From an uncultured Clostridia bacterium (GTDB lineage Bacteria; Bacillota; Clostridia; TANB77; CAG-508), in the NCBI GenBank assembly GCA_963558245.1, contig CAUWGA010000004.1, forward strand, positions 3,198 to 67,197: a DNA stretch of 64,000 nucleotides, given 5' to 3'. Shown piece by piece: positions 6,833 to 52,245 of this stretch; the stretch's first letter is position 1, and every line of letters begins with the position of its first letter. The notes beneath the pieces are model-generated. The model was not told where the DNA came from. It worked only from the letters and a program-made list of their open reading frames with translations, and ran no database searches. The position numbers and the translations under genes are program-made.

Positions 6833-6895
6833 TATAATCTCTCCTAATTATTAATACATTTGCAAAACAAATTATAACTTTTTTAAACAAAAAAT

Positions 6896-7304: not shown

Positions 7305-8183
7305 CTATTTTTTAAAACCACCAAAACTTTTCACAGTTTGTGAAATATTTGTGGAAACTCCTCCTAAAAATTCGCGTACAAATGAATTTGCTTTTATCAA
7401 AGAATAAATCCCACCAACATATATAAATTTATTAAATAAATTAGAAGAAGAAAAATTCAAAGAAAATAAAATCAACAACACTAAAGAAACGATAACTTGA
7501 ATAAACAACAGAGAAAATAAATTTTTAAGCCAAGACTTAAAAAACCAAGATGTAGAATCTAAACTAAGAGATAAAAAAGAAAAAGGTGCGAGCAAAACAA
7601 AAACTTTTATCATAATATATCTAAAAGAATAAGAAAAAACTAAATTTAAAAGAGACATACTTAAAGTTCCTTTTATTAAACCATCAATAGAAAAAATATT
7701 TAAAGTATTGGTATCTATAGCAATATTAGTATTTATTGTATTAATTAATTCAGAAAAACTAATATTTTTATGAAATAAACTTTTACCTAAATCTCTAATT
7801 GCAAGAGAAATATTTGAATTAAAGTCTAATAAAAATTGAACTATAAAAAAAGAACAATTCATACAAATACCAAAAATGATAATTTTAATAAAAAAGCTAA
7901 AAGGAGAATCAACTTTATTATAAGTAATGTGAGACATTAAAAATTTAGCAGCATAATAAATAATAAAACCTAAAAGTAAAGAGTTAGCAATTAATAAAAT
8001 ACCATTTGACGTTGAACTTCCAAAAATATTTTCAAAATTTTTATCATTTAAAATATTAGAATCAATAAAAGTAATTTTATCTAAAATCGAATATAAATTA
8101 TTATCTATAGAAGCAAAAAGGGTTTCAAAAATGCTATTAATAGTATCAATTATTGTTTGAGTAATATTAGTTTGATTTTCCAA
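7305..8183 (-). CDS. Polytopic membrane protein, VirB6/TrbL-like candidate
   Basis: About 6 hydrophobic segments, 292 aa, positioned between the pilin-like and PrgI-like genes. Function is inferred from context only. Confidence 0.45.
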   Translation of the reverse strand: MENQTNITQTIIDTINSIFETLFASIDNNLYSILDKITFIDSNILNDKNFENIFGSSTSNGILLIANSLLLGFIIYYAAKFLMSHITYNKVDSPFSFFIKIIIFGICMNCSFFIVQFLLDFNSNISLAIRDLGKSLFHKNISFSELINTINTNIAIDTNTLNIFSIDGLIKGTLSMSLLNLVFSYSFRYIMIKVFVLLAPFSFLSLSLDSTSWFFKSWLKNLFSLLFIQVIVSLVLLILFSLNFSSSNLFNKFIYVGGIYSLIKANSFVREFLGGVSTNISQTVKSFGGFKK

Positions 8184-8194
8184 TATAATCTCCT

Positions 8195-8533
8195 TTAAGA
8201 AACTAATGATTTAATAGCTTCTAAAATTAAGTTAATTGCTAATATAAAAGCATAAGAAAATAACGAACCCTTTATGATTTTTTTACCCATGCGTATTTTT
8301 TCTTCATCACCAAAACTAAACTTTTTCATAAATACACCACTACCAACAGCAACGGCAGCAGCAGGTGTTGCGATTTTTAAAAGCCAACTTTCAATACTTT
8401 CAAAAGCAGAATTAATTTTATTTACTATTGCAGGTTCACCCCAGCCATAACTTATATTTCCAAAACAAAGTAATGATATAGAGATAAAAATAATAACAAA
8501 AGTCATTGAAAATAATTTTTTTTTATATTTCAT
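8195..8533 (-). CDS. Small secreted two-TM protein, VirB2/TrbC pilin-like candidate
   Basis: Signal peptide MKYKKKLFSMTFVIIFISISLLCFG, then ATPAAAVAVGSGVFM and a C-terminal hydrophobic helix, the typical layout of T4SS pilins. Confidence 0.4.
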   Translation of the reverse strand: MKYKKKLFSMTFVIIFISISLLCFGNISYGWGEPAIVNKINSAFESIESWLLKIATPAAAVAVGSGVFMKKFSFGDEEKIRMGKKIIKGSLFSYAFILAINLILEAIKSLVS

Positions 8534-8572
8534 GTAATTCAGTCCTTTTATATATTTAGATTTTAGGAAAAT

Positions 8573-10307
8573 CTATAAACCATTAAAATCTTTAAAATAA
8601 GGAAACATTTTTAATGTTTGTGGCGGTAAAATTTTGTTTCCATTAGATAAAAACGTAAGAGCGGTGAAAGTTTCAAGATTTCTAGTAAAAAAGTTAGAAT
8701 CATATATAAAATCATTTTGCAAATATGTGCTATAAGTCTCTGATATATTAGAATTTTGAGAATTTAAAGTATTAGTAATATAACTAAAATTAGTTTCTCT
8801 TGCACTTTCAGAAATGCTTTTAGAAATTTTTTCCTTATCTTCTTTACCAAGTTGTTTTTGAGCTTCTTCAATAGTGAAAATATCATCTGTTCTAAACCAT
8901 ATTTTATTAATTAAATTTTGAGTAATAACTTTAACTGTTGCTTCATCTTTTAAAGTGGTTTTTAAAGAAGAATAACTTTGTGTACTAATAATATTAATAC
9001 ATTTAGCTTCTCTACTTAAAGAAAAGAATTCGCAGTCAGTTTTAGTGGCAAATTTATCATATTCATCACAAATGAAGGCTGAAGTAGTCACATTATTTTT
9101 TGATAAACGATTCATAACCTCTGCTTGAAAATCTAATTTTAAATAAGATGCAATAATTTTAGATAAGTTTGTATATTCAAAAATATTCATATTCAAAACT
9201 ACAATTTTACCTTTTGATAAAACATCATCAAAACCTTTAAAAGTAAGCATATCTTTATCAGAACAAAAAGTATTTAAAACTTCATAGTCAGACACGAAGG
9301 TATTTGTTATTCTAGTAATTTCAGAAATTAATATTCCTTTAGTTCTTACATCCAAATTATTAAATTCTTTTTCAAAAAAGTTTAAACTAGCATTTAATTC
9401 ATAAATCTGTTTTTGGTTAAATTTACAAGAAATAAATAAATCTTTTAAAATTTTAATCTTTTCCTTATAATAATTAGGCTCTGTAATAAGTTTATGTATT
9501 TCAAGAAATGTAACATATCCGGTTATTATAAAGTCTACAAAGTTTAATACTTTCACATAAAACTTCCTCAGCTTTGTCTAACCAATACGACTCTGAATTA
9601 TTTTCGGAAAATAGAAGCAATATAGTTTTTAATCGATTAGCTAAAACTTTAGCTTTTAAATGAGGTTTATGTAATGGATTATAAAAAACATTTGAACCTA
9701 ATTCTAAAACAATTAAATCTTTAGTTAAATTGAATTTTTTGGAATATTCTAATACTTGTTTATAATAATTACCTTTTACATCTAAAATAAGCATACTAAT
9801 TTTTTTATTTAAATTATTAGAATTGTATTGTAATAATTGGCGAGTAAAAGGATACATTGCACTAGAAGTTTTTCCAGAACCAATGGTTCCTGTAATTAAA
9901 AAATTTTGATATAAACCAGACTCTGGAATATAAATAGTTTCTTTTAAATCTTCAGTTTGACCAATTTTTAGTAGTAAATTATTAGGGGCACTTTTGAAAT
10001 TTTTAGAGTGAGAATTTAAATTAATTTTATTTGTTTTAGAATTATTTAATTTGTTTTTAAAACTTTTGAAAAATATAAAAATTTTTAGTAAAATCCTAGA
10101 ATATATAAAATGACCTATAAAAAAATTAGAAAATATTGAAGTAAAAATAAATGTGGTTTTTATTATTTGCCATAAATCTGGATTTTTGGAACAAATATCA
10201 AAAGGATGAATACCATAAGGAATAATTATTTCTTCAGCGATATAAATTGGATAAAAGATTTTAAAAATTATCATACTAGAAATAAATGAAAATAATACTG
10301 AAAACAA
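8573..10307 (-). CDS. Type IV secretion coupling protein (VirD4/TraG family); two frames joined by a +1 shift at CGG (9519-9521), otherwise a pseudogene
   Basis: N-terminal TM helices, Walker A GTIGSGKTSS, ILDVKGNY, Walker B-like FICDEYDKFAT, and a TraG/TraD C-terminal region (NIISTQSYSSLK). ORFs 9501-10307 and 8573-9556 overlap by 56 nt. Confidence 0.7.
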
Positions 10308-28338: not shown

Positions 28339-31300
28339 TTAATCTCCTTTACTTAAAAATTTATCAAAGAATTTATTTATATATTTTTTATTAATTTCTG
28401 GCCAAGATAAATCAGCATTTTTCATATAATTTATAGTAAATTTATTTTTCATTTCTATATTAGAGTTGTATTTAGAACTATTGCTAGTTAAATCATTTAT
28501 AATACCTAAAATATCTTCTTTATCTTTTATATATTTGTAGAATTCTTCATCAGAAATTTCTTCTAATTTTTGATTATCAGGCTTTAATTCATTAATCAAA
28601 TCAATAAATTTAAATGAATTATTATGATAAATATGAAAAACTTTAGAGTAGCTACTTTCTATTAAAATCAATTTTGATATAATTTCAGCACAATAATCAA
28701 CAGGACTCAAATCAATTTTTAAACTAGAAAAAGATTTAGCGATTTTATCCAATTTAGCAATTGTCAAAACTCTATTTAAAAATGCATTTTTTTCATCATT
28801 TTCTTGGAATTTACCATCTGAATATCTTGCTGTAATATTACCAAGACGATATATAGAAGCCCTTAAATTAGAATTTTCCATAGCTTCCCAGATGTTATAT
28901 TCTGCTTCAAATTTAGTTTTTATATAAATATTAGATTCATAATTTTGCCCCACATATAAGCAATGTTCATCAAATACAACAGGATTATTAGCAGAAGGAA
29001 GTGAAGCAGAAACTGAAGTAGTTGATATGTGATTCATATAAATTGAATAATTTGTACAAAAATCAATTATATTATTAGTTCCAATAACATTAACTAAGTT
29101 GAAAACATCTTTACTACCATAATGATCAACAATTGCTGCTGAATGTATAACAAGATCAATTTTATTTCCTAAATTATCATAGTCTTCATAAGAAAGTCCA
29201 AATTGTTGTTTAGAAATATCAGCAACTATAACAAAAATACGGTTATCAATATATTTTAAAAAGTCTTTTCCGAAGTAAAATTCTAATTTTTTTAGTAATC
29301 TATCTTTAGAAGCTATACTATTTTTGTTACGTATAATACAATACACATTACTGTTAGTGTGTTTAATCAATTCAGCTAAAATATGAATACCAAGATATCC
29401 TGTTGCTCCTGTTAAAAGAATGTTTTTGGCAGAAATTTTCTTGTTTGAAAAATTTTCTTTAAAATTAAAGTAAATATTATCTTTTAATGTTCTTTTATAT
29501 AAGTTTGAATGTTTAGGATAAGAAAAATTATCCGACAATGCTCTTATTGTTTTTAATTCATAGATATCTTGAATATTTACGATAAAGTTTTTTTCTAATA
29601 GCTCTATAGTAATTCTCATTAATGTCAAAGAATCTGCACCTAATTCTATAATATTATCATCAATACCAATATTTTTTATATTTAGGTTTTTTTCTAATAT
29701 TTCTTGGAAAACTTTTTCGAATTCATTTCTTGGGGCCTCATATTTTTTCTTTTTTTCTATTTTAACATCTAAACTCAAAAGTTTTTTACGATCTATTTTT
29801 CCATTATTAGTTAAAGGTAATTTATCTAAAAATACAAAATAATTTGGAACCATATAAGTTGGAACAAGCTTAGAAATATATGCTTTTAAATCAGAAGTAG
29901 AAAGCTTTTGATCCATAACTAAATATGCTACTAAATAATTATCAAAGTCGCTAGTCTTTTTAGGTAAAACTACACATTTTTTTATATTTGGATGTCTTAA
30001 AAGTTTAGTTTCAATTTCACCAGTTTCAACACGAAATCCTCTAATTTTTACTTGATTATCAATTCTACCAAGATAATGTAAATCTCCATCTGGAGTTAGA
30101 TAAGCATCATCAGCAGAACGGTATAAAATCTCATTTGAATTATATGGATTTATGACAAATCTATCTTTATTAAGCTCAGGACGATTTAGATATCCTTTAC
30201 ATACTCCAAGACCGCTTACACACATTTCTCCTTCAACTCCATAAGGAAGAATATGTAAATTTTGATCCATAACATAAACTTTTAGTGTAGGAATAGGTTT
30301 TCCAATATTGGAATTAGGAGAAAGTAAATCATCTTCCAATAATTCTTTATATGTAACATGTACAGTTGTCTCAGTAATTCCATACATATTGATAATTCTT
30401 GTAAATGGATATTTATCTTTCCAAGGTTTTACTAAATTTGGTTTTAAAGCCTCTCCACCAAAAATAATATAACGTACAGATAAATCAGAATGTTCATTTA
30501 ACAATTCTCTATCTAATAAATTATAAAAATATGTAGGTGTTTGGTTTAAAACAGTGACTTTTTCATCTCGTAATAATTGTAAAAATTTGTTAGCATCCTT
30601 AGCAGTTGTTTCAGGAACTAAAATAAGTTTACTTCCATATAATAAACAAGCATATAATTCCCAAACAGAAAAGTCAAAAGCAACTGAATGAAACATTGTC
30701 CATACATCATTTTCATTAAAATCAAATTGAAATTTATCATTTTTTATTAGACGCACAATATTTCTATGTTTTAACATAACTCCTTTTGGCGTTCCAGTAG
30801 AACCAGAAGTATAAATAATATAAATTAAATCATCTGGATTATTTATACATTCTAAATTATCAGAGTTATTATTATAAATTTCATTTTTTGAATTAATATC
30901 TAATAAATACATATCTATTGGAATTTCTAAATCTTCCTTATGAGCATTATTGGTTAAAAACAATTTAGCAGAACTATCTTTTAACATAAAAGATACACGT
31001 TCTTGTGGATAAGATAAATCTATAGGCAAATAACATCCACCAGCTTTTAAAATTCCTAAAATACCAACTATCATTTCAAGAGATTTATTTAAACGCAATC
31101 CAATAACATCATTTGATTTTATACCTAAGTTTCTTAAAAAATGAGCAACTTGATTAGATTTTTCATTTAGTTCTCTATAAGTCATAGAAGCATTTTTAAA
31201 CTTAATTGCAACATTTTCAGGTGTTGAAAGAGCCTGTTCTTCAAACAATTGAGATATTGTTTTGTTAGAAGGATAGTGACAGTCATTTTCTTTTGCTAAA

Positions 31301-32634
31301 TTTAATATTTCTTGTAATTCATCCATAGTTGCTATAGAAATTTCTTTTATGTATAAACCTGGATTAATTAATACTTGTTCTATCATATACAATATTCTTT
31401 GATGAATTCTAATAATTTCATCTTCTGAATATTTTGAAATTTTATAATCATATGCAATATCAATATTACCAGAATTATTTAAATCAAAGAAATGAATATC
31501 CATATCATCTGCAATAGACCCATTAAAGCTCCAGTCACAAGAAGAATTAATTCCCTCATCAGTGGTTGTTTTAGTAATCTGATAAGAAAGCAAAATTTGA
31601 TACAAATTAGGTGTAGAAGGGTCATTTTTTCTTAAATCTTCTAAAATATATTGATAAGAATATTTTTGATGTCTATATATAGAAGTAAAATCCAAAGCAA
31701 TATTATTTACAAAACTTAAGAAAGATGTCTTATCTGTAGGCTTAATTCTTACAGGAACAGTGTTTATAAACATTCCCATTGTGCCTTTTTGAACACTTGA
31801 TGTTCTGTTTAATATAGGAGTTCCTAAAATAAAATCATCAGATTTGTTAATTCGTCCAATATAAATAGAATATATAGCCATTAAAAAGTTATACATTGAA
31901 ACATTATAAATTTTACAAAAATCATTAATTTCTTGAACTAAGCTAGAGTTCATTTCAAATACTTTTCTTTTTCCTTTTAAAGCAGTGGTAGCATCAATAG
32001 CTGGAGTATCAACAAAACTAGGTATGCTAATGCAGTCAGGTCGATTAGCTAAATATTCACTCCAAAAAGATTTATCTTTTTCAAATTTAGAACTATTAAT
32101 ATATTTTTCTTCCGCACTAATATAATCTATATATGAATTTGAATTTTTTTGATTAGGAATCTTATTATGGACGACAACATATTTGTTAACTATATTCTTA
32201 GCAATTAAACCCAAAGTCCAAGAGTCAGAAATAAGATGGTGGATATTTACTACTACGCCACCAGTCATATCAGGATATCTAAAAATTTTTATATCGAATA
32301 AAGAAGAATTTAAAATATCAAATATACGTGATATCATTGTATCTTCTAATTTTTTTAAATCATCTTTTGTATTAATATCAACAATTTCAACATCATAATC
32401 AACCTTATCCAAGAAAGATTGATAAACTGAACCATCTTTAAGTGTAAACTTTGTATGAAAATTATCATTTTCATTAATCATTAGTTGTAATGCTTGTTGT
32501 AAATCCTTAAAGTCAAGAGGCTCATATAAATGAATTGTCCCACAGATATTATTTATGTTTGAACCATTAAAAAATAGTTCTGTATTCCAAATACTTTTTT
32601 GAGCATTTGTTAATTCATAAACATTACTTTCCAT
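28339..32634 (-). CDS. Single-module nonribosomal peptide synthetase, C-A-T-R (terminal thioester reductase)
   Basis: C: HHLISDSW. A: LIYIIYTSGSTGTPKGV, NMYGITETT, GRIDNQVKIRGFRVETGEIE, NGKIDRKKL. T: LGADSLTLMR. R: LLTGATGYLGIHIL and YIKTKFEAE. Confidence 0.92.
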   Translation of the reverse strand: MESNVYELTNAQKSIWNTELFFNGSNINNICGTIHLYEPLDFKDLQQALQLMINENDNFHTKFTLKDGSVYQSFLDKVDYDVEIVDINTKDDLKKLEDTMISRIFDILNSSLFDIKIFRYPDMTGGVVVNIHHLISDSWTLGLIAKNIVNKYVVVHNKIPNQKNSNSYIDYISAEEKYINSSKFEKDKSFWSEYLANRPDCISIPSFVDTPAIDATTALKGKRKVFEMNSSLVQEINDFCKIYNVSMYNFLMAIYSIYIGRINKSDDFILGTPILNRTSSVQKGTMGMFINTVPVRIKPTDKTSFLSFVNNIALDFTSIYRHQKYSYQYILEDLRKNDPSTPNLYQILLSYQITKTTTDEGINSSCDWSFNGSIADDMDIHFFDLNNSGNIDIAYDYKISKYSEDEIIRIHQRILYMIEQVLINPGLYIKEISIATMDELQEILNLAKENDCHYPSNKTISQLFEEQALSTPENVAIKFKNASMTYRELNEKSNQVAHFLRNLGIKSNDVIGLRLNKSLEMIVGILGILKAGGCYLPIDLSYPQERVSFMLKDSSAKLFLTNNAHKEDLEIPIDMYLLDINSKNEIYNNNSDNLECINNPDDLIYIIYTSGSTGTPKGVMLKHRNIVRLIKNDKFQFDFNENDVWTMFHSVAFDFSVWELYACLLYGSKLILVPETTAKDANKFLQLLRDEKVTVLNQTPTYFYNLLDRELLNEHSDLSVRYIIFGGEALKPNLVKPWKDKYPFTRIINMYGITETTVHVTYKELLEDDLLSPNSNIGKPIPTLKVYVMDQNLHILPYGVEGEMCVSGLGVCKGYLNRPELNKDRFVINPYNSNEILYRSADDAYLTPDGDLHYLGRIDNQVKIRGFRVETGEIETKLLRHPNIKKCVVLPKKTSDFDNYLVAYLVMDQKLSTSDLKAYISKLVPTYMVPNYFVFLDKLPLTNNGKIDRKKLLSLDVKIEKKKKYEAPRNEFEKVFQEILEKNLNIKNIGIDDNIIELGADSLTLMRITIELLEKNFIVNIQDIYELKTIRALSDNFSYPKHSNLYKRTLKDNIYFNFKENFSNKKISAKNILLTGATGYLGIHILAELIKHTNSNVYCIIRNKNSIASKDRLLKKLEFYFGKDFLKYIDNRIFVIVADISKQQFGLSYEDYDNLGNKIDLVIHSAAIVDHYGSKDVFNLVNVIGTNNIIDFCTNYSIYMNHISTTSVSASLPSANNPVVFDEHCLYVGQNYESNIYIKTKFEAEYNIWEAMENSNLRASIYRLGNITARYSDGKFQENDEKNAFLNRVLTIAKLDKIAKSFSSLKIDLSPVDYCAEIISKLILIESSYSKVFHIYHNNSFKFIDLINELKPDNQKLEEISDEEFYKYIKDKEDILGIINDLTSNSSKYNSNIEMKNKFTINYMKNADLSWPEINKKYINKFFDKFLSKGD

Positions 32635-32837: not shown

Positions 32838-34568
32838 ATGAGAGGAACAAAAAATAGAAATGTGTACGAACCACATAAAGTAGAAAGCTTTAGAGATTTA
32901 TTAAGTACAGTGGATGAAAAATATCCAAATAATGTAGCATTTAAATATAAAAAAGATGCTGAAACAAAAGAACCTGAATATGTAGAAAAAACATATCATC
33001 AATACGTACAAGATGTGAAAGCCGTATCTACAAGTTTATTAGAACTAGGATATAAAGGAAAGAAAATAGTAGTTATAGGAAATAACAGATATGAGTGGTG
33101 TACAACATACATGGCAGTAACAACTGGAGGTATGATAATAGTTCCTATGGATAAAGCACTACCAGACAATGAAATAGAAAATCTAATAAAAAGAAGTGGT
33201 GCTGAAGTTATAGTATTTGATAAAAAATACATGAATATTATGTTAAAAATAAAAGAGAACAAAGAAATAAATGCAAATACTCTAATTTGTATGGATAACG
33301 AAGAACAAGTAGGAGTGGAAAAATATGAAGATTTATTAAAAAATGGATATGAGTTACTAGAAAAAGGTAGTACAAAATATGATGATGTGAATGTAAATCC
33401 AGAAGAAATGGCAATATTATTATTTACATCAGGAACAACAAATGCACCTAAAGGTGTAAAATTATCACAAAGTAATATATGTGCAAACATATCAACATTC
33501 ACTTCATGGGTAAAAATATATCCAACAGATACACTATTATCATTTTTACCAATACATCATACATTTGAATGTACAATAACATTTTTATACGGAACATATA
33601 GTGGAGCAACAATAGCATTTTGTGATGGTCTAAAACATATACAAAAAAATATGAAAGAATATGAAGTATCAATATTAGTAGCAGTACCATTAGTATTAGA
33701 AACGATGTATAAAAAAATTCAAAAAGGTATAAAAGACCAAGGAAAAGAAAAATTAATAAATAAAGTAACAAAAGTGTCAAATGCATTATTAAAATGTCAT
33801 ATAGATCTAAGAAAAGTATTTTTTAAACAAATATTAGATAATTTTGGAGGAAAACTAAGAGTAGTTTTATATGGAGCAGCTCCAATGAATAAAGATACAA
33901 TAATAGGGTTTAATAATATAGGTGTTGAATTAGTACAAGGATATGGACTAACAGAAACATCACCAGTAATATCAGCAGAAACAGACAAAGAAAAAAGACC
34001 TGGTTCAGTAGGATTAGTATTTGACAATTTAGAAGTAAAAATTAATGAACCAAACGAAGAAGGAATAGGAGAAATTTTCGTAAAAGGTCCAAGTGTAATG
34101 TCTGGATATTATGAAAATGAAGAAGCAACAAAAGAAGCATTTGAAGATGAATGGTTCAAAACAGGAGACTATGGATATTTAGACAAAGACGAATTCTTAT
34201 TTGTAACAGGAAGAAAAAAAGACATAATAGTATTAAAAAATGGTAAAAATGTATATCCACAAGAAATTGAATTTTTAATAAATAAAATACATTATATAAA
34301 AGAAAGTTTAGTATATCAAAGAGAGCAAAGCAAAACTGACACAATGTTATGTGCGAAAATAGTTTATGATAAAGACTTAATAGAAAAAGAACTAGGAAAG
34401 AAAACAGAAAAAGAATATCAAGAAGAAATATGGAAAGAAATAAAAGAAATAAACAAAACCTTACCTGTATTTAAACACATAAAGAAAATAGAAATAACAA
34501 CAGAAGAATTTGCTAAAACAACAACCCAAAAAGTAAAAAGATATAAAGAACTAGAAAAAATAAAATAA
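32838..34568 (+). CDS. Long-chain fatty-acid--CoA ligase (AMP-forming)
   Basis: LLFTSGTTNAPKGVKLSQ, GYGLTETSP, TGDYGYLDKDEFLFVTGRKKD. Divergently transcribed from the NRPS. Confidence 0.85.
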   Translation: MRGTKNRNVYEPHKVESFRDLLSTVDEKYPNNVAFKYKKDAETKEPEYVEKTYHQYVQDVKAVSTSLLELGYKGKKIVVIGNNRYEWCTTYMAVTTGGMIIVPMDKALPDNEIENLIKRSGAEVIVFDKKYMNIMLKIKENKEINANTLICMDNEEQVGVEKYEDLLKNGYELLEKGSTKYDDVNVNPEEMAILLFTSGTTNAPKGVKLSQSNICANISTFTSWVKIYPTDTLLSFLPIHHTFECTITFLYGTYSGATIAFCDGLKHIQKNMKEYEVSILVAVPLVLETMYKKIQKGIKDQGKEKLINKVTKVSNALLKCHIDLRKVFFKQILDNFGGKLRVVLYGAAPMNKDTIIGFNNIGVELVQGYGLTETSPVISAETDKEKRPGSVGLVFDNLEVKINEPNEEGIGEIFVKGPSVMSGYYENEEATKEAFEDEWFKTGDYGYLDKDEFLFVTGRKKDIIVLKNGKNVYPQEIEFLINKIHYIKESLVYQREQSKTDTMLCAKIVYDKDLIEKELGKKTEKEYQEEIWKEIKEINKTLPVFKHIKKIEITTEEFAKTTTQKVKRYKELEKIK

Positions 34569-42812: not shown

Positions 42813-42927
42813 TTATATAAATGAACTGTAACAAATGATAAAAAATATAGAAAAATGGAACAAAAAATGTAGAAAAAAATCATCTAAAATGTTATAATAA
42901 ATTAGCTAAAAATAAAAGAAAGAAGGG

Positions 42928-45900
42928 ATGAAGGAAAAAATGAAACTAAAAAAATTATGCATCATTATGACAATATTGTGCACAATTTTATTTACTGCAA
43001 ATTCAGTGTTTGCAGCAAATGTACAAACAGAATTAACAACAAACAAAAACGAGGTTCAGGCGAAAAATGAAGAAGAAATAACACTTACCCTAGAACTAAA
43101 AGAGTTTAAAGAAATTGAAGATGGACTGTATGCCTATAAAGGACAAATTCAATACGATAAAAACGTTTTTTATGAAATAGAGGAAAAAAATTTTACAACT
43201 CAAAATTCTTGGGAAAGTCTTAAATATAATAAAGAAAATAATGAATTCGTTATTATAAAAAAATCAGGAGTAGTAAGTGAAGAAGAATTTTTACAAATAA
43301 AATTAAAAGTAAAAAATAATGGAATAGCAGGAAAATCAAACATTGTAATTACAAACCAAACAACGTCAGAGGGAAAAACAGATATAGAAATAGGGAACGT
43401 AAATGTAGAGATTACAGTTATTCAAGAAGAAAATAATAATCCAGGAACAGGTGACAACGAAGGTAATAACAATAGTGGAAACAATAATCCTGATGCAGGA
43501 GATAACGAAAATAACAATAATGACAATTCAGGTAATGGTAATGAGGGAAGTAATGAAGGAAACTCTAACGGAGAAAATAATAATCAAGGTTTAGGAAAGC
43601 CTTCAACAGAATTACCAAAAACAGGATTAGGAAATTATCAAACACTTATTGTTATAGGAATAGAGATATTACTAATAATTGCAGTAATTTCATTTATAAA
43701 ATATAAAAATATAAACAAAAAGATAAAAAATAAAAAAATAATAGGAATGCTTTTAGCAGTTATACTTACAGCACAAATAGCAGGAACTACATATGCGGTA
43801 GTGCTAAGCATCACACAAAAAGGAGAATTAAATGGAGACGGACTAATTAATTATGCTGATGTAGAATTAGCTGAAAAACATTTAATTGGACTTGAAGAAT
43901 TACCAGCTGATAAATTAGAAAATGCAGATTTAAATGAGGACAAAAAAATAACAGTAACAGATTTAACACTTTTAATAAAAAAGATAGAACATAAAAGAGA
44001 ATATGAAGTAAAAATAGAAAATGCTAGCACAGAAAATTATTATCCAAATAAGAATCAAGAAATAGAAATATCTTTTGTAGCTGATATAAACTATGATGAT
44101 GTATCAATTAAGAAAGTAATAATAAATGATAATGAATATGAAGTACAAAACACAATTGGAAATGAATATAAAGTAAAACTAAATGTAGGAAATATAGCAG
44201 AGAAAAAAGATTTTAAATTTTTAAAAGCAATACTTTCAAATAACGAAGAAGTAAAAACAAACTACAACTTTTCTGTAAGCGTACTAAAAGATGTACCATT
44301 TATTGATGAAAAAACGTATAAATTAGAAGAAACATTTGAAGGAAAAGCAAATGTTAGCTTCGATTTAATTGATACAGAAAATAGCATTACTTCTGCACAA
44401 TTTACAGCTTATGAAAAAGTAGGTAATATACCTGTAGTAGAAACACCTATAAAATCAGGAAATAATACACAAGAAATAGAAGTAGAAGATGGAAAAACAT
44501 ATGTAGTTGAAATAAACGTAGATTATAATTTAGCACCAGAACAATTAGAAGGAAAACCACATCAAGGAGAAAATATTATCTACACAAAAGAATTTACAGT
44601 AAACTTAGATTATAAATTTAAAATATCTAATATAAAAACACTAAAAAATGATGTAGCCAATACAACATTTACAAAAGGAGAACAAATTCAAATTTCTTTT
44701 GATAGTACAAATGCAGCATTTGAAACCACAAAAAATAATACATTTAAACCAGCTGTTGTAACAATTAATGGAAAAGAATATCAGATAACAGAAAAAAATA
44801 ATCATTATGTTGCAACAATAGATGGAATAGAAAGCTTAGGAAATCAACTAATTACAATAGAAAAAGTAAAACTTGGAAACGGAAAAGAATTTAGTTTAGA
44901 TAAAAATAACAGTGTTCAAGTTAGAATAGAAGAAAAGAAACCAGAAATAACTGATTTTGAAGCACAAGAAAACGTAGCAGACAAAAATATTAACATCAAA
45001 TTTAATATATTAGATAAAGAACAGACAATAGAAAGTGCAAAAGTTGTACTTTATGATAGCAAAAAGAATGTAATTGAAAGCAAAGATTTAAATGTGGAAG
45101 AAATCAGAAATGGAACAATAGAAACAACATTAAAGACAAAAAACACAACAACATATATAATACAAGTAGTTGCAAATTACAGAGTAACAGATACAGAAGT
45201 GGCAAAAAACAAAGTATTATTAGAAAAAGAAGTACCAGCAATTATATATGCCAATATCAAGCAAGCAGAAGTAAATAAAACAGAATTAGAAAAAAATGAT
45301 TCTGTAAATATTACATATGAAATTGAAACAAATAGTGAGCAAACTATAGAAAAAATACGTGTAAATAGTGTAAATTATATAGCAACAAAATTAACTAATG
45401 GAAAATATAAAATTACAATTCAAACTGGAAATGTACCACAATTACTAAATCTTGAAACAACAAAAATTATTTTCAAAGACGGAACAGAAACAGAAGTAAC
45501 AAATACATTAAAAGTAAATGTACTAAAAGATGTACCAACAATTAGTGATATAAGACAAGAAGACAGTGTGGGAAAACATGAAGTAACATTACATTTTACA
45601 ATAAATGATGCAGATAAAAGTTATATCAGAGGAAAAGTACAATTAGTTAAAGGCGGCAGTGTAGTAGAAGAAAAAGACATTATAAAAGAAGAAAAAGAAA
45701 TAGGAACAGTTACTTTTGACCATGTAGAAGAAGGCGTTTCTTACACAGCAAAAGTTTTAGTTACATATAACAGATTTACAGAAACAGAAGAATATATTCA
45801 AAAAGACCAATTACTAGAAGAAGTGCCAGTTATATTAATACATGATTATAAATTACAAATAAGTGATTTAAAAACAGCAAATACAGATAAGGAAACAAAA

Positions 45901-48900
45901 TATTTTAATAAAAATGAAGAAATAACTTTAAGTTTTACAAGCACAAATGCATCTAGTTTTATACCAGAAGAAGCAACAATAAATGGAAAGACATATAAAG
46001 TAACAAGAAAAACAGGTACAAATCAATATACAGCTACATTATCAGGCTACGATGCAAGTGGAAAACAAGAAATAAAAATAGAAAAATTACTTTTGTCAAA
46101 TGGAGTAGAATTAGACGTTTCAAACGAAACCAAAATAGAAGTAGAAATATTAAAAGACAAACCTACAATTACAGATTTTTCTTATAATGAAGATACTGAA
46201 AACAAAAACAAAGTAAAAACAAAATTCATTTTAGATGACAATGAGCATACACTTGTAAGTGGAAAAATTGTTATTACAGATAAAAAGAAAAATGAAATAA
46301 GTACACAAAGCTTAGAAGTTGGAAAAAATGAAATAATTTTTGATAAAACAGATAGTGAATATTATTATATTAAAGTAATTGCAGATTACAACTTAGGAAC
46401 AGATGAAAACAATTTACACAAATCTCAAACTCTATTAAACGAGGAAATGGACTTTTCAATTCGTAAAATAGAAATGAAAGATGTAACAGATGTATATTTA
46501 TACAGAAAAAATGGAGACAAAATAGAAGAAGTAACAAGCATCTTTACACATGAATTAGAACAAAAAGACCAATTCTTAGTAAAAGTTGAGATGAAAGATA
46601 TGCCAGCCTTTTATGCACCATTAAAAGGATATAGGGTAGAAAATAATGAATTAAAACTGGAACTAGAATATGAAAATGTAGTGCAATATGAAAATAACAT
46701 GAAACAAGATAAACTAGAAGTAGTTTATGGAACTGTTGAAAATAATAAAGCTACTAATAATTCACTAGCAAGTTTAATAAAACGAATGAAAGCAAACCCA
46801 AATGGAACATTTGAATTAATCAAAGATTATGATGCATCAACAATTACAGGAGATCACAGGTCTTTAGTAGGAGCAGACATAACATTTACAGGAACATTGA
46901 ATGGTAATGGACACAAAATATCTAATTTATCTAGGCCAATCTTTGATTATGTTTCAAGAGCAAACATTAAAGATTTAGTATTAGAAAATGTATATATATC
47001 AAATACAGATAATGCTACAGGTAGAGGTGCTATTTCAAACGAAATGGGAAGTCATACTACTATAAGCAATGTTCATGTTAAAAATATGGCAATTACGACA
47101 TCTGTAAAATATTCATACTATGGAGGAATAACTGGAAAACTTACAGAAAGTACAATTAAAGAATGTAGTGTAACAGGACTTACTATAACAGGACCACAAA
47201 ATTCACTTGTAAGTGCAATTGGAGGAATTACTGGATATATTAACACATCTACAATAGAAAATTGTTATGTAACAGGTTCAATTTCAGGAAGAAAAGAAAT
47301 GGGTGGAATAGTAGGACTTGTAGAAAAATATGTACCAGACACAAGCTACATAAGAAATTGTATAGCAAAAGTAAATATAGATTCAACAGATGGACCAAAC
47401 GGAATAGGTGGTATCGTAGGATTTGCTAGAAATGCTGGTCAAATCAATTTAAAACAAAATATTAGTTTTGCAACAGGAAGAAATTCATATAAACTATATG
47501 GAACAAATGCTACATTAAATATGTTTACTAAAAACTATGTAATGGAAGAATCAACATTAAAAGACAATGACAATGCACAAATTAAGAAAATATCTAAAAA
47601 TGATTTTAATGAAGAATTTTGTAAAAAAGAAGCAGGATTTGATGAAAATATTTGGAATTTAAATGGATGCAGTTATGACAAATTACCAACATTAAATAAT
47701 GCTGATCCAAACAATATAAAAGAAGAAGGGCAACAACAAGAAAATGAAGTATATATTCCAGAACAAACAAGACTAGAAAAAATGGTAGAATACAATAAAA
47801 ATAAAGAAATTTTATATAGCAACTTATATAAGTTAATGCCATTTTATGATGCAAAATATCTAGTTTTAGATGGAACAAAAATTAGTGAAGATGATATCTT
47901 AAATAAAGAACTAATCAAAACAGTTTTACCTTATGATAATAAAGGAAAATTAGCAGTTGCGCTTACAAAAGAAAACTATAAAAATCTTAGTTATATAAAA
48001 GTAGTATTTAATGACAATACAACTAAAAAATACACTTTAAAATTTAAAGATGATTATGGAAATATAGCAAATTATAATATTAACGAATTAAAAGTAGATT
48101 ACAATTTCGATAAATATATTATAAGACAAGATGCAACAATTGTAAGAGAGTTAAGTAATTATATACAAAACTTAGAATATGAAAAAGACTTACAAGGAAT
48201 GATATCTCTTGACAGAGGTCATCCAGCATATAAAACACATTTTAATGAGATTACAAGAACAAAAGAAAATGCGGATAAATTTATTTATAAATACTTATCT
48301 AGTGCTAGTGGTTATAGCATAACAATGGAAAATGAAATACTAAGCACAATAGTAAAAAATAGACTGCTTAACAATAATGAAATGAAAAGAATTTTATTTG
48401 CATATAACTATTATTCTCGTTTCTATGGAATAAATATGGATGGAGCAGATCTTTCAGACATTATGCTGTTCAAGGGAGATTTATATAGAAAAAATATAAA
48501 AGTAAGTGATTTAATATCAGACTTTTGGAATAGTAGATGGAAAAATAGTCATGTAAATTACCAATATTATAGAGATACTTTAGCACATAGATTTGGAATA
48601 TCACAAATTAGTGATTTTATGGATTATAATATAAAAATTTTAACAGATAGTGCAAATCCAAATGACTGGTTTACAGCAAACTTTAGAGGACCTTTAGTAG
48701 AAGTTCCTGCAAAAGGACATGAAGATAGCGATATCGATTATAGAGCATGGACACAACTAAAGAAAAGACCAGAGTATATGTTAGCACTTTTAACATTACC
48801 AGAAAATGCTGGATATATGATATCAACACCAACAGTATTTTTTGTAGGTTCACAAAGGGTATATATAACAGACCCTACAAATAAAACACAGCAACAAACA

Positions 48901-51900
48901 TTGCTAAATAAAATGCAAAGTTTTGCAAATCAAGTAGCAACATTTTATGGAACAGCAGCAGGATTTATAGAGAGCAGATATTTTAATAATATATGTGATA
49001 TAGCAATAGATACTAGATTCTTACCAGGATTAGGAGAGCAATTTAATGCAAAAACCAATGATTTATTCCATAAAAACTTTAATGAAATATTAAACGAATG
49101 GTCTATGATAGGTGGAGTAGGAGCATACGCGGGAAGCCAAAGAATTTATTTTGTAACAAATCATGCACTAGATAGTTATTCGGCGTGGTCTCATGAAACA
49201 GGTCATAATCAAACAGCTAGATTATTTTTTAAAAACAATGGATTTAGACCAATAGGCGGAGGAGCATCATCTGATGGAATAAGTGGATCAGAGGATTATA
49301 CAGATGGAAACACATCTCAAGGATCAAGAGATGGAGATATAAATTTTAATTTAAGTTATAATTACAATGAAAATCAAATGGTTACAACAAACTTAACACC
49401 AGAAAGAATCAATTCTAAAGAAAAAATTGAAAGCTATTATAAAAGAATGTTCGAAACAATTGACTTTTTAGATTATGTAGAAGCAAAAGCATTTTTAGAA
49501 TTAACACCAGAAGAACAATCAAAAGTAGCAGTACAAATTTACTATCCAAATGCACCAAAAGATTATTCAACAGTAGGATGGAAAACAATTTCAAAAGAAG
49601 AATTTGAAAAAATGAACTTAAAAACAGTAAATGATTTATGGGATAATCAAATTACTATAAAACCAGGAGTAACAGGTAATACAACACAAACAGGACAAGG
49701 AGACTATGGCTCAGAAGGTATGTATATCAGAAGATGGTATCAACCATATAATGAAAATGGAAGAACGCATACATATGGATTTAAGTACACTGCTTGGCAA
49801 ATGCTTGGAATAGGCGGATATGATGGAGGTTATGTTACTTACTATAGTGGAAAGAGTAAAAATGACTTAGATGCCATCAAAAAAGTTACAAAAGATGATA
49901 CAATGACATGGCAAAAATTTAAACAAAACCGCTATCAATTAATGGAAAATAGCTGGGATAAAGTAACACATGTAAATGCTGATGAATTAATGGAAGCATA
50001 TAGAAATGCTTTAAAAATGGATGCACAAAATGGAGATAGAAATGTAACCAATAGTACAAATGTTAGAAGAAGAAATTATCATTATGTGAAACGTATAACA
50101 GATGACTTTAGAGCAGATGTATTAAATGGTGAAAATGAAATAAATAAGGTGCATATAAAATCAGCAAAAGAATTCAAACAAAAATTAACAGAAAATCCAT
50201 CAGGATATTATGTATTAGATAATGATATAGACGTATCTTCTCTAACTGGCGAAAATGCGATAATAAGTGGAACTTTTATAGGAAAAATAGATGGACAAGG
50301 ACATAAAATAACAGGAAATACATTACCGATTTTCGACTCTATAAAATTTGCACATATTTCAAACTTAAAGCTAGAAAACAGCAAAATCTCTAATGCTATG
50401 TCAGATGTAGGAGCATTAGTAAGAAAAGCAGAATATAGCGAAATTGAAAATGTAATAGGAAAGGAAATAGAAGTTACATCAACAAATAAACAAATTGGTG
50501 GGTTAATTGGAAGCATGACAAATTCTTTTGTAATAAATACACATATAACAGACGCTATAGTATCTGGCAGTACTAGAGTTGGTATGATTGCAGGATATGT
50601 TGGACAAAGCCAAATACAAGAAAGCTCAGCAAATGGAAAAGTTACATCAAAAGGAAATGCAATAGGAGGACTAATAGGAGAAACTTACAATAGAGCCATA
50701 ATTTTAAATTGTTATTCAATAGGAAATGTAAAAGGAAATACTAATATTGGAGGATTAATAGGATTAGTAACAAACACTTCTGTTACAAAAAGTTTCAGCA
50801 GTGCAACTGTTAATGGAACAAATGCAGTAGCAGGATTTATAGGAAAATCAACAAATAATTCTACAGTACAAAACAACATTTCATTTGGAAACCAATACAA
50901 ACAATATAAATTTGATGGAGCAACAGATAATTCACAACTAAATAACTACAAAGGAAATTATGAATATGAAAACAACACAGGAACTTCTACATTAGAAAGA
51001 AAAGATATCAATTTTGAAGGAAAAATAGATGTGGCAGCAAAATCAGATATCACTAATGTAAACTTTTATAAAAATACTTTAGGATGGAGTGAAAAAGTTT
51101 GGGACTTTACAGGAATAGTAAATGAAGAAGTACCAAAACTAAAAAATCTAGATCCTAACAAAAATATACCTATTATATTAAAAGAAAATATAAACTCAGT
51201 AGATGAATTTATAGAAAAACTATCAATAAAACCAGATGGAAGATATACATTAACAAAAGACTTAGATTTCTCAGGAAAAACTTATAACTTAGGAAGTTCA
51301 GTAATATCAGGAACATTCTTCGGAGTAATCGACGGAAATGGACACACAATAAAGAATCTAAGAAATGCTAGTATATTTGAACAATTTAGTGGAACAGCAC
51401 AAAATTTAAATATAGAAAATTTACAATATGGAGTGGTATGGAACAAACCACCATATACGCAATATATAGACACTTGGAACAGCGACAAAACTCAAAACAA
51501 TGTAGGAGCATTTACAAAAAAATCAACAGAAGCTAAATTCTATAATATGAGATTTAATAGAATTATTATGTCAGGAAATAACAATATTGCAGTAGTAACA
51601 GCAAATGATAAAGATTCAACATTTGAAAAAATAAATGTAACAGAAGCATTTATAATGACAGAATCAAAAATTGCTAACAGTGGAAACAAATCTTCAACAT
51701 TTATTAGCGAAAAAACAGGTGGAAGCATTAAAAACTGCTATGTCCAAGGAGAAATGCACTCAGCAGGAAATGAAAGTGGAGCAGTTATAGGATTAAGCCA
51801 TGGTGGAATTAAAATTGAAAATGTAGTAGCTAATATTATAGGTAGAGGATATCAAAAAGAAAATGCAAAAAATAGTGGATTATTTATTGGGAAAATAAAC

Positions 51901-52245
51901 GGAAAAACAGAAATTAAAAATTCTATATCTATGGGAAAAACATCATATGATATGTTACTAAATAAATTTGCGATGATACCAAATGTAGCAAATATAGAAT
52001 TTATTACAAATTGTTATGAAAATGCAGATGAACAAGGAATTTCAAATAGTAATGGTAAAAATATAAAAGAAGTAACAAAAGAACAATTATTAAGTAAGGA
52101 ATTCTATAGAGATACATTACAGTTAGATGAAAGCATATGGAACTTAGATAATATAGAAGAAAGAAACTATTCAGAAAGCCCATTCCCTTATAGCCCAGAT
52201 CCTACAAAGTTCCCTAAATTTATTGATTTTGGTGGATTAAGATAA
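42928..52245 (+). CDS. Giant surface protein: SP-cohesin-LPKTG anchor fused in frame to SP-like TM, dockerin, four tandem Ig-like module pairs, GLUG-motif regions and an HExxH metallopeptidase (ZmpB/IgA-protease, M26-like)
   Basis: An uninterrupted 3105-codon frame. Motifs are listed in the sub-features and findings. The likely true start is the second ATG (42940, MKLKKLCIIM...). Confidence 0.85.
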   Translation: MKEKMKLKKLCIIMTILCTILFTANSVFAANVQTELTTNKNEVQAKNEEEITLTLELKEFKEIEDGLYAYKGQIQYDKNVFYEIEEKNFTTQNSWESLKYNKENNEFVIIKKSGVVSEEEFLQIKLKVKNNGIAGKSNIVITNQTTSEGKTDIEIGNVNVEITVIQEENNNPGTGDNEGNNNSGNNNPDAGDNENNNNDNSGNGNEGSNEGNSNGENNNQGLGKPSTELPKTGLGNYQTLIVIGIEILLIIAVISFIKYKNINKKIKNKKIIGMLLAVILTAQIAGTTYAVVLSITQKGELNGDGLINYADVELAEKHLIGLEELPADKLENADLNEDKKITVTDLTLLIKKIEHKREYEVKIENASTENYYPNKNQEIEISFVADINYDDVSIKKVIINDNEYEVQNTIGNEYKVKLNVGNIAEKKDFKFLKAILSNNEEVKTNYNFSVSVLKDVPFIDEKTYKLEETFEGKANVSFDLIDTENSITSAQFTAYEKVGNIPVVETPIKSGNNTQEIEVEDGKTYVVEINVDYNLAPEQLEGKPHQGENIIYTKEFTVNLDYKFKISNIKTLKNDVANTTFTKGEQIQISFDSTNAAFETTKNNTFKPAVVTINGKEYQITEKNNHYVATIDGIESLGNQLITIEKVKLGNGKEFSLDKNNSVQVRIEEKKPEITDFEAQENVADKNINIKFNILDKEQTIESAKVVLYDSKKNVIESKDLNVEEIRNGTIETTLKTKNTTTYIIQVVANYRVTDTEVAKNKVLLEKEVPAIIYANIKQAEVNKTELEKNDSVNITYEIETNSEQTIEKIRVNSVNYIATKLTNGKYKITIQTGNVPQLLNLETTKIIFKDGTETEVTNTLKVNVLKDVPTISDIRQEDSVGKHEVTLHFTINDADKSYIRGKVQLVKGGSVVEEKDIIKEEKEIGTVTFDHVEEGVSYTAKVLVTYNRFTETEEYIQKDQLLEEVPVILIHDYKLQISDLKTANTDKETKYFNKNEEITLSFTSTNASSFIPEEATINGKTYKVTRKTGTNQYTATLSGYDASGKQEIKIEKLLLSNGVELDVSNETKIEVEILKDKPTITDFSYNEDTENKNKVKTKFILDDNEHTLVSGKIVITDKKKNEISTQSLEVGKNEIIFDKTDSEYYYIKVIADYNLGTDENNLHKSQTLLNEEMDFSIRKIEMKDVTDVYLYRKNGDKIEEVTSIFTHELEQKDQFLVKVEMKDMPAFYAPLKGYRVENNELKLELEYENVVQYENNMKQDKLEVVYGTVENNKATNNSLASLIKRMKANPNGTFELIKDYDASTITGDHRSLVGADITFTGTLNGNGHKISNLSRPIFDYVSRANIKDLVLENVYISNTDNATGRGAISNEMGSHTTISNVHVKNMAITTSVKYSYYGGITGKLTESTIKECSVTGLTITGPQNSLVSAIGGITGYINTSTIENCYVTGSISGRKEMGGIVGLVEKYVPDTSYIRNCIAKVNIDSTDGPNGIGGIVGFARNAGQINLKQNISFATGRNSYKLYGTNATLNMFTKNYVMEESTLKDNDNAQIKKISKNDFNEEFCKKEAGFDENIWNLNGCSYDKLPTLNNADPNNIKEEGQQQENEVYIPEQTRLEKMVEYNKNKEILYSNLYKLMPFYDAKYLVLDGTKISEDDILNKELIKTVLPYDNKGKLAVALTKENYKNLSYIKVVFNDNTTKKYTLKFKDDYGNIANYNINELKVDYNFDKYIIRQDATIVRELSNYIQNLEYEKDLQGMISLDRGHPAYKTHFNEITRTKENADKFIYKYLSSASGYSITMENEILSTIVKNRLLNNNEMKRILFAYNYYSRFYGINMDGADLSDIMLFKGDLYRKNIKVSDLISDFWNSRWKNSHVNYQYYRDTLAHRFGISQISDFMDYNIKILTDSANPNDWFTANFRGPLVEVPAKGHEDSDIDYRAWTQLKKRPEYMLALLTLPENAGYMISTPTVFFVGSQRVYITDPTNKTQQQTLLNKMQSFANQVATFYGTAAGFIESRYFNNICDIAIDTRFLPGLGEQFNAKTNDLFHKNFNEILNEWSMIGGVGAYAGSQRIYFVTNHALDSYSAWSHETGHNQTARLFFKNNGFRPIGGGASSDGISGSEDYTDGNTSQGSRDGDINFNLSYNYNENQMVTTNLTPERINSKEKIESYYKRMFETIDFLDYVEAKAFLELTPEEQSKVAVQIYYPNAPKDYSTVGWKTISKEEFEKMNLKTVNDLWDNQITIKPGVTGNTTQTGQGDYGSEGMYIRRWYQPYNENGRTHTYGFKYTAWQMLGIGGYDGGYVTYYSGKSKNDLDAIKKVTKDDTMTWQKFKQNRYQLMENSWDKVTHVNADELMEAYRNALKMDAQNGDRNVTNSTNVRRRNYHYVKRITDDFRADVLNGENEINKVHIKSAKEFKQKLTENPSGYYVLDNDIDVSSLTGENAIISGTFIGKIDGQGHKITGNTLPIFDSIKFAHISNLKLENSKISNAMSDVGALVRKAEYSEIENVIGKEIEVTSTNKQIGGLIGSMTNSFVINTHITDAIVSGSTRVGMIAGYVGQSQIQESSANGKVTSKGNAIGGLIGETYNRAIILNCYSIGNVKGNTNIGGLIGLVTNTSVTKSFSSATVNGTNAVAGFIGKSTNNSTVQNNISFGNQYKQYKFDGATDNSQLNNYKGNYEYENNTGTSTLERKDINFEGKIDVAAKSDITNVNFYKNTLGWSEKVWDFTGIVNEEVPKLKNLDPNKNIPIILKENINSVDEFIEKLSIKPDGRYTLTKDLDFSGKTYNLGSSVISGTFFGVIDGNGHTIKNLRNASIFEQFSGTAQNLNIENLQYGVVWNKPPYTQYIDTWNSDKTQNNVGAFTKKSTEAKFYNMRFNRIIMSGNNNIAVVTANDKDSTFEKINVTEAFIMTESKIANSGNKSSTFISEKTGGSIKNCYVQGEMHSAGNESGAVIGLSHGGIKIENVVANIIGRGYQKENAKNSGLFIGKINGKTEIKNSISMGKTSYDMLLNKFAMIPNVANIEFITNCYENADEQGISNSNGKNIKEVTKEQLLSKEFYRDTLQLDESIWNLDNIEERNYSESPFPYSPDPTKFPKFIDFGGLR
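43612..43626 (+). other. LPKTG sortase motif, internal at aa 229-233
   Basis: STELPKTGLGNYQTLIVIGIEILLIIAVISFIKYKNINKKIKNKK: motif, hydrophobic helix and basic tail, a complete cell-wall sorting signal. Confidence 0.8.
43822..43984 (+). other. Dockerin-like module (two Ca-binding repeats)
   Basis: ELNGDGLINYADVELAEKHLIG and DLNEDKKITVTDLTLLIKKI fit the DxNxDGxIxxxD dockerin repeat pattern. Confidence 0.7.
49192..49206 (+). other. HExxH zinc-binding motif of the protease domain
   Basis: SAWSHETGHNQTARLFF. Confidence 0.7.

Follow-up and report, generated by a model that had tools for sequence, protein, structure and literature searches.

Cohesin and dockerin on either side of an internal sorting signal in a giant M26-family protease precursor of uncultured gut Clostridia

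M26 proteases such as the pneumococcal IgA1 protease, ZmpB and ZmpC are virulence and colonisation factors. Since sortase joins to the wall the part of a protein that lies upstream of LPXTG, the sortase motif of these proteases stands on the "wrong" side of the enzyme, and to our knowledge it was never obvious how the catalytic part is retained on the cell. The question is raised anew by a giant open reading frame (ORF) in a stretch of 64,000 nucleotides, here called the window, from an uncultured Clostridia bacterium (GTDB lineage Bacteria; Bacillota; Clostridia; TANB77; CAG-508; assembly GCA_963558245.1, contig CAUWGA010000004.1, positions 3,198 to 67,197 of the forward strand). In this ORF a cohesin and a complete LPKTG sorting signal run, in one frame, into a second signal-peptide-like helix, a dockerin and an M26 protease, and we know of no job for cohesins and dockerins other than their tight mutual binding. 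It is probable, in our judgement, that this precursor is cut by signal peptidase and sortase, so that the cohesin becomes anchored in the wall and the dockerin-protease, once released, docks onto it, both cleavages and the binding being predicted from sequence features, homology and modelled structure.

The precursor and its predicted processing

A sequence-only reading of the window had claimed a single frame across the junction of cohesin and dockerin, and the ORF was indeed found to pass through this junction with no internal stop. The signal peptide that it had placed at residues 1-29 ends in VFA, and only its start codon shifts: ATG 42940 (MKLKK...) is a likelier start than 42928, since AAGGA lies 5 nucleotides upstream of it, homologues begin at MKLKK, and gene callers give 3101 residues in other assemblies. 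The promoter-like site listed in Table 1 was the top-scoring plus-strand site 5' of the giant ORF in a consensus scan. The cohesin-like beta-sandwich expected at about residues 30-165 was recognised by Pfam (PF00963, 29.4 bits against a cut-off of 24.1), and AlphaFold2 (AF2) folds residues 30-165 into such a sandwich, with cohesins as its best matches in the PDB. The N/G-rich linker, LPKTG, hydrophobic helix (the first transmembrane helix, TM1) and basic tail could all be read at residues 167-270. The linker differs in sequence and length among relatives, and although it varies, the LPKTG position is held by LPQTG, IPKTG or IPQTG in the close ones; in NCBIfam the region has a weak likeness to C-terminal sorting signals. 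This sorting signal (LPKTG, a hydrophobic segment of 24 residues and KYKNINKKIKNKK) is complete, yet internal, ending at residue 270 of 3105. The helix that follows (TM2), which had been described as signal-peptide-like with an AxA-type site, has the features of a Sec signal, namely the basic loop, an h-region of 15 residues and then T-Y-A, with the predicted cut after TYA (residue 290). The two-repeat dockerin was found in its turn, with the loops NGDGLINYADV and NEDKKITVTDL by direct reading and a match to PF00404, as were the roughly 2750 residues beyond it, which hold Peptidase_M26_N, Peptidase_M26_C, GLUG and HETGH. Directly after the dockerin comes a repeat region of about 790 residues for which Pfam gave no match. 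It consists of modules of roughly 90 residues bounded by VLKDxP, the first of which is all-beta in the AF2 model, and is possibly a stalk. Independent translation of the dockerin-protease from the internal Met of TM2 was considered and rejected: as the sequence-only reading had already remarked, this Met has no usable ribosome-binding site (RBS), because AGGA abuts the ATG, and no good plus-strand promoter-like site lies near the junction.

By its sequence the product of the ORF is a zinc metalloprotease of the M26 (IgA1-protease/Zmp) family, with predicted activity. Peptidase_M26_N and Peptidase_M26_C were scored by Pfam at 100.8 and 94.2 bits, both over the cut-off, and the catalytic region matches the S. 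pneumoniae IgA1 protease structures 6XJB, 7JGJ and 6XJA with E of about 1e-44 over about 1135 residues. The zinc motif is HETGH, and a downstream Glu in ...SGSEDYTDGN aligns, by eye only, with the WAEDxADGN of homologues. ZmpB (172 bits) and ZmpD of NCBIfam were matched below their strict cut-offs, and with 172 bits against a ZmpB cut-off of 3000 the protein is not a ZmpB orthologue.

Streptococcal Zmps (the IgA1 protease as well as ZmpB, ZmpC and ZmpD) were all reported to have a signal peptide, an atypically N-terminal LPXTG, two transmembrane segments and a second site at which signal peptidase is proposed to cut (Bek-Thomsen et al., mBio 2012, PMC3518915). Likewise, the M26 IgA1 proteases all carry an N-terminal LPXTG, while M26 members outside ZmpA are mostly without a known substrate (PMC9637739). 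In a 2026 proteomic study, knockout of srtA depleted IgA1 protease and ZmpB (PMC13604702). An LPXTG followed by a second signal peptide, which the sequence-only reading had taken for an oddity, is therefore a published hallmark of the family (PMC3518915, PMC9637739); since the streptococcal M26 enzymes have it, this joining of a sorting signal with a second signal peptide marks the family and is no anomaly of the present gene.

In the streptococcal N-termini that were retrieved, a YSIRK signal peptide, a conserved module of about 60 residues, LPNTG, TM1, SKKKVKNK, TM2 ending in VHA and a second conserved module follow one another. Like the streptococcal Zmps, the window protein is ordered as signal peptide, module, LPXTG, TM1, Lys-rich loop, TM2 with a small-x-Ala end, conserved module, repeats and protease, its catalytic core is homologous to theirs (6XJB, E=1e-44; M26_N, M26_C), and the exception of a sorting signal that is not C-terminal is common to both. 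TM2 ends 53 residues past the glycine of LPNTG in the streptococcal sequences and 57 past that of LPKTG in the window, and according to a secondary description the mature pneumococcal enzyme is cut 56 residues downstream of LPXTG (PMC9637739). Unlike the window protein, which has a cohesin and a dockerin at these places, the streptococcal Zmps have a module of about 60 residues that is not a cohesin ahead of LPXTG and, beyond TM2, a module other than a dockerin together with G5; precomputed Pfam matches list for them just YSIRK, Gram_pos_anchor and G5, neither cohesin nor dockerin being among them. In addition, the window protein exceeds them by about 1,100 residues and has extra C-terminal GLUG repeats. 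The streptococcal modules (P0298, P0321, P0326, P0354, P0355, P0376) follow the patterns VHYKYV..EL..EK...YYLVY before LPXTG and LLLNYN..YEL..GE.LPLP..ISGYTYIGYIK after TM2, and by analogy with cohesin and dockerin these two might form a binding pair.

In the processing that we propose, Sec export and removal of the first signal peptide would place the cohesin outside the cell. TM1 would then stop transfer and span the membrane from outside to inside, and the Lys-rich loop would stay in the cytoplasm, as the positive-inside rule predicts, while TM2 would re-initiate export and the dockerin and the protease of about 2,800 residues would reach the outside. Sortase would cut at LPKT/G and link the cohesin, on its N/G-rich linker, to peptidoglycan; signal peptidase would cut after TYA, and the freed protease would have the dockerin as its new N-terminus. 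After both cuts a small hairpin peptide would be left in the membrane. The dockerin would bind the cohesin, probably in cis before the cutting, and each anchor would be loaded 1:1 with its own enzyme.

Two AF2 models bear on this docking. In the first (residues 5-420, nine sequences) the predicted template modelling score (pTM) was 0.56 and the predicted local distance difference test (pLDDT) values were 85-95 for the cohesin and 81-92 for the dockerin, with two hairpin helices and a disordered linker. Foldseek matched this model best to the C. perfringens cohesins 2JH2, 2W1N and 2VO8 and then to the ruminococcal cohesins of ScaC, ScaB and ScaE, the top matches all being cohesins with TM-scores of 0.7-0.75 normalised to the target. 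The second model (residues 30-356, alignment of 52 sequences) reached a mean pLDDT of 83.6 (cohesin 96-98, dockerin 95-98, helices 76-86) and a pTM of 0.71. Some 60 of its residues are disordered, and we estimate that a pTM of about 0.46 would result if only the cohesin were confidently placed; the value of 0.71 therefore indicates that cohesin, hairpin and dockerin are confidently placed relative to each other. The model is supportive of docking between cohesin and dockerin, although not decisively so.

Table 1. Features of the giant ORF and its upstream region, in window coordinates.
Feature	Position	Strand	Basis
Promoter-like site, TAGAAA-17-TATAAT with upstream TG	42870..42898	+	Consensus scan only
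Whole ORF, single frame, 3105 codons, stop-free	42928..52245	+	ORF list, translation
Signal peptide S1, residues 1-29, ends VFA/A	42928..43014	+	Direct reading
Cohesin module, residues 42-164 (PF00963)	43051..43419	+	Pfam, AF2, Foldseek
N/G-rich low-complexity linker, residues 167-228, presumed wall-spanning	43426..43611	+	Direct reading; AF2 pLDDT <55
LPKTG sortase recognition motif, residues 229-233	43612..43626	+	Direct reading
Hydrophobic helix TM1, 24 residues (234-257), predicted out-to-in, conserved Glu	43627..43698	+	Hydropathy script, AF2 helix
Basic loop KYKNINKKIKNKK, residues 258-270, predicted cytoplasmic, 8 Lys in 13 residues	43699..43737	+	Direct reading
Second hydrophobic helix TM2, IIGMLLAVILTAQIAGTTYA, residues 271-290, read as internal signal peptide S2	43738..43797	+	h-region and T-Y-A c-region
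Dockerin, two Ca-binding repeats, residues 298-356 (PF00404 at 301-353)	43819..43995	+	Pfam; sequence match to PDB type I dockerins; AF2
Repeated Ig-like modules, about 790 residues, bounded by VLKDxP	43996..46362	+	AF2 of first module; conserved in relatives
M26 metalloprotease core: Peptidase_M26_N, GLUG, Peptidase_M26_C	46363..49899	+	Pfam, PDB match, NCBIfam
HETGH, residues 2089-2093	49192-49206	+	Direct reading
C-terminal extension, more GLUG and M26_N-like repeats, then stop codon	49900..52245	+	Pfam; ORF end

Spread of the cassette and its split relatives

A profile made from nine sequences of this cassette was searched against 1.84 billion cluster representatives and returned 6373 matches with E<=1e-3, of which 210 had E<=1e-30; among the best representatives, dozens matched the profile end to end, from residue one. 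Scripts run over 176 retrieved proteins, mostly representatives of 50%-identity clusters, found the order cohesin, hydrophobic segment, basic loop, hydrophobic segment, dockerin in 80 of them, a pattern far beyond chance since 80 diverged proteins share the same order of parts. An LPXTG-like motif stands directly before TM1 in 35 of the 80 cassettes (LPQTG 8, IPKTG 8, LPKTG 5, others), in 78 the net charge of the inter-helix loop lies between +3 and +10, and in most of them TM2 ends with a small-x-small (AxA-like) site 4-16 residues before the dockerin. Polar residues recur within the helices, with Glu in TM1 (38/80) and Gln or Glu in TM2 (56/80). Conservation of the hairpin equals that of the cohesin: where relatives share 60-70% identity overall, their hairpins share 62-85%. 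At 43627-43797 of the window the hairpin is unusually conserved for a sorting signal joined to a signal peptide, and TM1 and TM2 may pair together or be recognised by a specific factor.

The cargo behind the cassette is mostly an M26 protease, with a detectable M26 domain in 32 cases, many of the others being truncated contigs. A GH5 cellulase (P0112), BNR/Sortilin-type enzymes (P0096, P0133, P0136, P0174), a DUF4874 plus DUF4832 protein (P0084) and unknown domains were also found in this place, and since it stands before unrelated cargo the cassette is modular. No account of a cohesin and a dockerin placed on the two sides of an LPXTG-TM-TM hairpin, nor of M26 proteases bearing dockerins, turned up in a literature search, an absence that is not proof of novelty; the combination of both modules with an M26-type LPXTG and two-helix hairpin in one precursor appears to be undescribed.

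Whether homologous loci contain one gene or two was answered both ways. Five loci from metagenome-assembled genomes (MAGs; L001-L005) carry the whole arrangement in one ORF of 2284-3134 residues, with a best-segment identity to the query of 41-62%, so that the single gene of the sequence-only reading holds for these; at six others (L006, L007, L009-L012) it does not, and two genes are present instead. The first of the two encodes a signal peptide, a cohesin, a middle module and a divergent C-terminal dockerin in about 307-320 residues (both modules found by Pfam). The second, immediately downstream, begins with its own Met and encodes a signal peptide ending in (I/V)YA, a dockerin, repeats and an M26 protease, and it is exactly the position of its N-terminal signal peptide that TM2 occupies in the fused form.

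The direction of change was read from identity matrices and from a neighbour-joining tree of the dockerin and 330 further residues (60 tips). The fused state is found at 50 of the 60 tips and at the base, and split forms are nested within fused clades at least twice, a count that is approximate, given a simple distance tree with midpoint rooting and no bootstrap. From this nesting it follows that TM2 can serve as a stand-alone signal peptide.

One of the split loci has two extra genes 3' of its protease gene (L009:9509-14151). One encodes a protein of 1263 residues ending in cohesin, middle module (X) and dockerin, and the other a signal peptide, a cohesin, PDEGQK repeats, LPQTG and a transmembrane segment; together they are a small hierarchical cohesin-dockerin anchoring system. 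The protease of this locus is apparently held via an adaptor on a separate sortase-anchored cohesin, and the fused form would do the same in one chain. With hidden Markov models (HMMs) of the family, cohesins of the fused or adjacent class scored 1e-43 to 1e-50 and their dockerins about 1e-30, against 1e-9 to 1e-11 for the adaptor X-dockerins and 1e-20 for the LPQTG cohesin of L009, and these gaps place the adaptor dockerins and the LPQTG cohesin in separate specificity classes.

Weighing the explanations

Cleavage into an anchored cohesin and a docking protease, which the sequence-only reading had put forward, has come out as the best-supported account of the locus, and we hold it to be likely: the fusion is conserved and widespread, the second AF2 model places the modules together, and the streptococcal M26 Zmps give a family precedent. 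It is further supported because in split relatives an orthologous cohesin gene has stayed immediately upstream of the gene for the dockerin-protease, whose own signal peptide there corresponds to TM2.

Several observations weigh against this account. No LPXTG-like motif is present in 45 of the 80 cassettes, so the design can do without the sortase step; in such proteins the cohesin would stay membrane-anchored by TM1, the scheme being otherwise the same. The sortase gene, which the sequence-only reading had wished to see located, was found neither in the 64-kb window (Pfam scan of 40 of its ORFs) nor, with a TLxTC motif scan, in the window or the retrieved loci, a result that says little because the search covered only 64 kb of the genome. 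The putative cleavage after TYA is drawn from sequence features and homology, and the predicted contact of cohesin with dockerin from the pTM alone. The strong conservation of both helices, polar residues included, could mean that the hairpin is retained as a functional part and not discarded. Finally, the cohesin protein of the split relatives has its own C-terminal dockerin and further cohesin proteins are encoded nearby, so their modules can belong to larger networks.

Some of these points would suit a hairpin that is a permanent anchor, an alternative that we regard as unlikely. TM2 would then stay uncut and the protease would be tethered by TM1, loop and TM2 or, after the sortase cut, by the hairpin alone; the repeats of about 790 residues would be a stalk through the wall, and cohesin and dockerin would bind in cis or between neighbours, organising or clustering the enzyme instead of recapturing one that had been set free. 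The unusual conservation of both helices with their polar residues, the many cassettes that lack an LPXTG-like motif, the long repeat region after the dockerin and the single confident arrangement in which AF2 holds cohesin, hairpin and dockerin all speak for it. However, the h-region of TM2 is short and in most cassettes leads to a small-x-small site that keeps a constant, short spacing from the dockerin, the equivalent segment is an ordinary N-terminal signal peptide in the split-gene relatives, and the mature pneumococcal IgA1 protease, as described at second hand, starts about 56 residues after LPXTG, past TM2 (PMC9637739).

A further alternative is that cohesin and dockerin are not each other's partners, each binding other dockerin- or cohesin-bearing proteins encoded elsewhere in the genome, in a larger network like that of a cellulosome or mucinolysome, with the fusion merely ensuring co-expression. 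Networks with many dockerin enzymes are known from gut Clostridia (PMC12997984), and split loci do encode cohesin-X-dockerin adaptors, an extra cohesin-dockerin protein and a separate cohesin-LPQTG protein. We nevertheless consider this quite improbable, given that no cohesin or dockerin other than those of the giant ORF was found in the 64-kb window or at the class-A loci, that the cohesin of the fused type is always fused to, or directly upstream of, its dockerin type while the X-dockerins and the L009 LPQTG cohesin are clearly divergent, that the same cassette precedes unrelated cargo, and that pTM reached 0.71 in the model.

The sequence-only reading had itself raised the chance that a sequencing error hides a stop, or that two adjacent genes were fused by loss of stop, start and RBS. 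The gene for the neighbouring aspartyl-tRNA synthetase (AspRS) served as a probe for the same locus in other samples, and three assemblies of the same species (ENA ERZ926630, ENA ERZ27236808 and Logan SRR34148682) gave the same junction peptide, free of stops, with 0, 1 and 26 nucleotide differences from the window over about 5.9 kb. Relatives at 34-65% identity keep the frame by way of in-frame indels. When L001 and L003 were aligned with the window by codon, many substitutions appeared, as did an in-frame indel of 6 nucleotides within the basic loop (KYKNINKKIKNKK against KYKKIDKKIKAKDKK), and the remaining two frames proved full of stops; neither a sequencing error nor a freshly lost stop can account for this. 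Thus, although the junction is rich in A, with homopolymer runs of the kind in which indels are frequent, although the linker of one related sample is interrupted by an in-frame stop, and although stand-alone cohesin-LPXTG and signal peptide-dockerin proteins do exist, an error or very recent mutation that erased the stop, RBS and start between a cohesin-LPXTG gene and a dockerin-protease gene can be dismissed almost entirely in view of the identical junctions, the frame kept between species and the 80 cassettes among diverged clusters. A hidden stop is ruled out by the three assemblies and the several species in frame, and a recent fusion of two genes by the basal position of the fused state, within which the split forms are nested.

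The stop just mentioned was seen in a relative of the L003 type (L014:1332-4157, Logan SRR32406203, which carries P0012), where it lies in the N/G linker (GDNN*DNNN) between cohesin and IPKTG. As a result gene callers begin the protease at the Met within TM2 (MILAIIL...); in a second sample, P0011 has this Met as its start too. This stop may be a natural null variant or an assembly error. In two relatives whose AspRS is 97% identical (L020:2-157 and L021:2-157) the contig ends just beyond the P-type ATPase gene, and the last ORF begins like an IS200-type transposase (…HTKWNCKYHIIF) where the window carries the giant ORF.

Known anchoring systems and meaning for M26 proteases

In sortase-anchored single-cohesin scaffoldins a cohesin, a linker and LPXTG tie dockerin proteins to peptidoglycan (PMC12997984, PMC13463774). 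Like the window protein, ScaE of R. flavefaciens and cSca5 of Limousia each have a signal peptide, a single cohesin and then a linker with an LPXTG sorting signal, and ScaE cohesin structures are among the fold matches of the window cohesin. Their anchor and cargo are, however, encoded by separate genes and their sorting signal is C-terminal, whereas that of the window protein is internal and runs in frame into the signal peptide and dockerin of the cargo. Cohesins anchored by a C-terminal transmembrane helix are also already known, as separate proteins. Adaptor scaffoldins and Amy4 of R. bromii resemble the window protein in having both module types in one polypeptide, and the product of the first split gene (P0021; cohesin, middle module, dockerin) is such an adaptor; the adaptors differ in that their two modules have differing specificity with no membrane segments or processing sites in between. 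Amy4 of R. bromii binds itself. The cohesins of C. perfringens lie inside secreted glycoside hydrolases and bind dockerins of other enzymes, and we know of no LPXTG-TM-TM hairpin between cohesin and dockerin in that species. Its X82 cohesins (2JH2, 2W1N, 2VO8) are the closest solved folds. In this host-associated bacterium cohesin-dockerin pairs serve enzymes that do not degrade cellulose, as summarised in PMC12997984.

Elsewhere in the window, a single-module nonribosomal peptide synthetase (NRPS; condensation, adenylation, peptidyl carrier protein and terminal reductase) is encoded at 28339-32634 on the minus strand and adjoins a stand-alone AMP-binding enzyme at 32838-34568 on the plus strand; it presumably resembles the clusters of gut Clostridia that make dipeptide aldehydes or pyrazinones. 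Several ORFs of 200-290 residues at 5249-10307 (minus strand) had no Pfam match, and a small HNH-endonuclease ORF lies near the start of the window at 243-755 (plus strand). These ORFs may be a mobile-element remnant.

Both the N-terminal LPXTG and two-helix layout of M26 proteases and anchoring by cohesin and dockerin were known; what appears to be new is their combination in a single precursor. A wider reading is that signal peptide, cohesin, optional LPXTG, transmembrane helix, basic loop, signal-peptide-like helix and dockerin make up a general, portable split-and-dock export cassette of gut Clostridia, by which a single polypeptide is divided into a surface anchor and its 1:1 loaded cargo, used for giant M26 proteases, glycoside hydrolases and BNR enzymes, and that the same logic, with non-cohesin modules, explains the long-puzzling N-terminal LPXTG of the pneumococcal IgA1 protease and of ZmpB, ZmpC and ZmpD. 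We offer this tentatively, as something that is nearly, but not quite, as apt to be right as wrong. If it is true, the sorted N-terminal fragment of the streptococcal Zmps would be a receptor for the released enzyme.

One gene that gives rise to anchor and cargo at 1:1 could also serve the engineering of surface display in Gram-positive bacteria. It seems that very large M26 proteases are exposed on the surface of abundant, uncultured gut Clostridia, and the question follows whether IgA or mucins are among the host substrates, both being candidates. With a cohesin and a dockerin at the two flanks of the hairpin, a vague model of how M26 enzymes are retained turns into a testable one, in which the precursor is cut and then docks, and the recurrence of this layout in many gut bacteria suggests how M26-family proteases stay on the cell surface.

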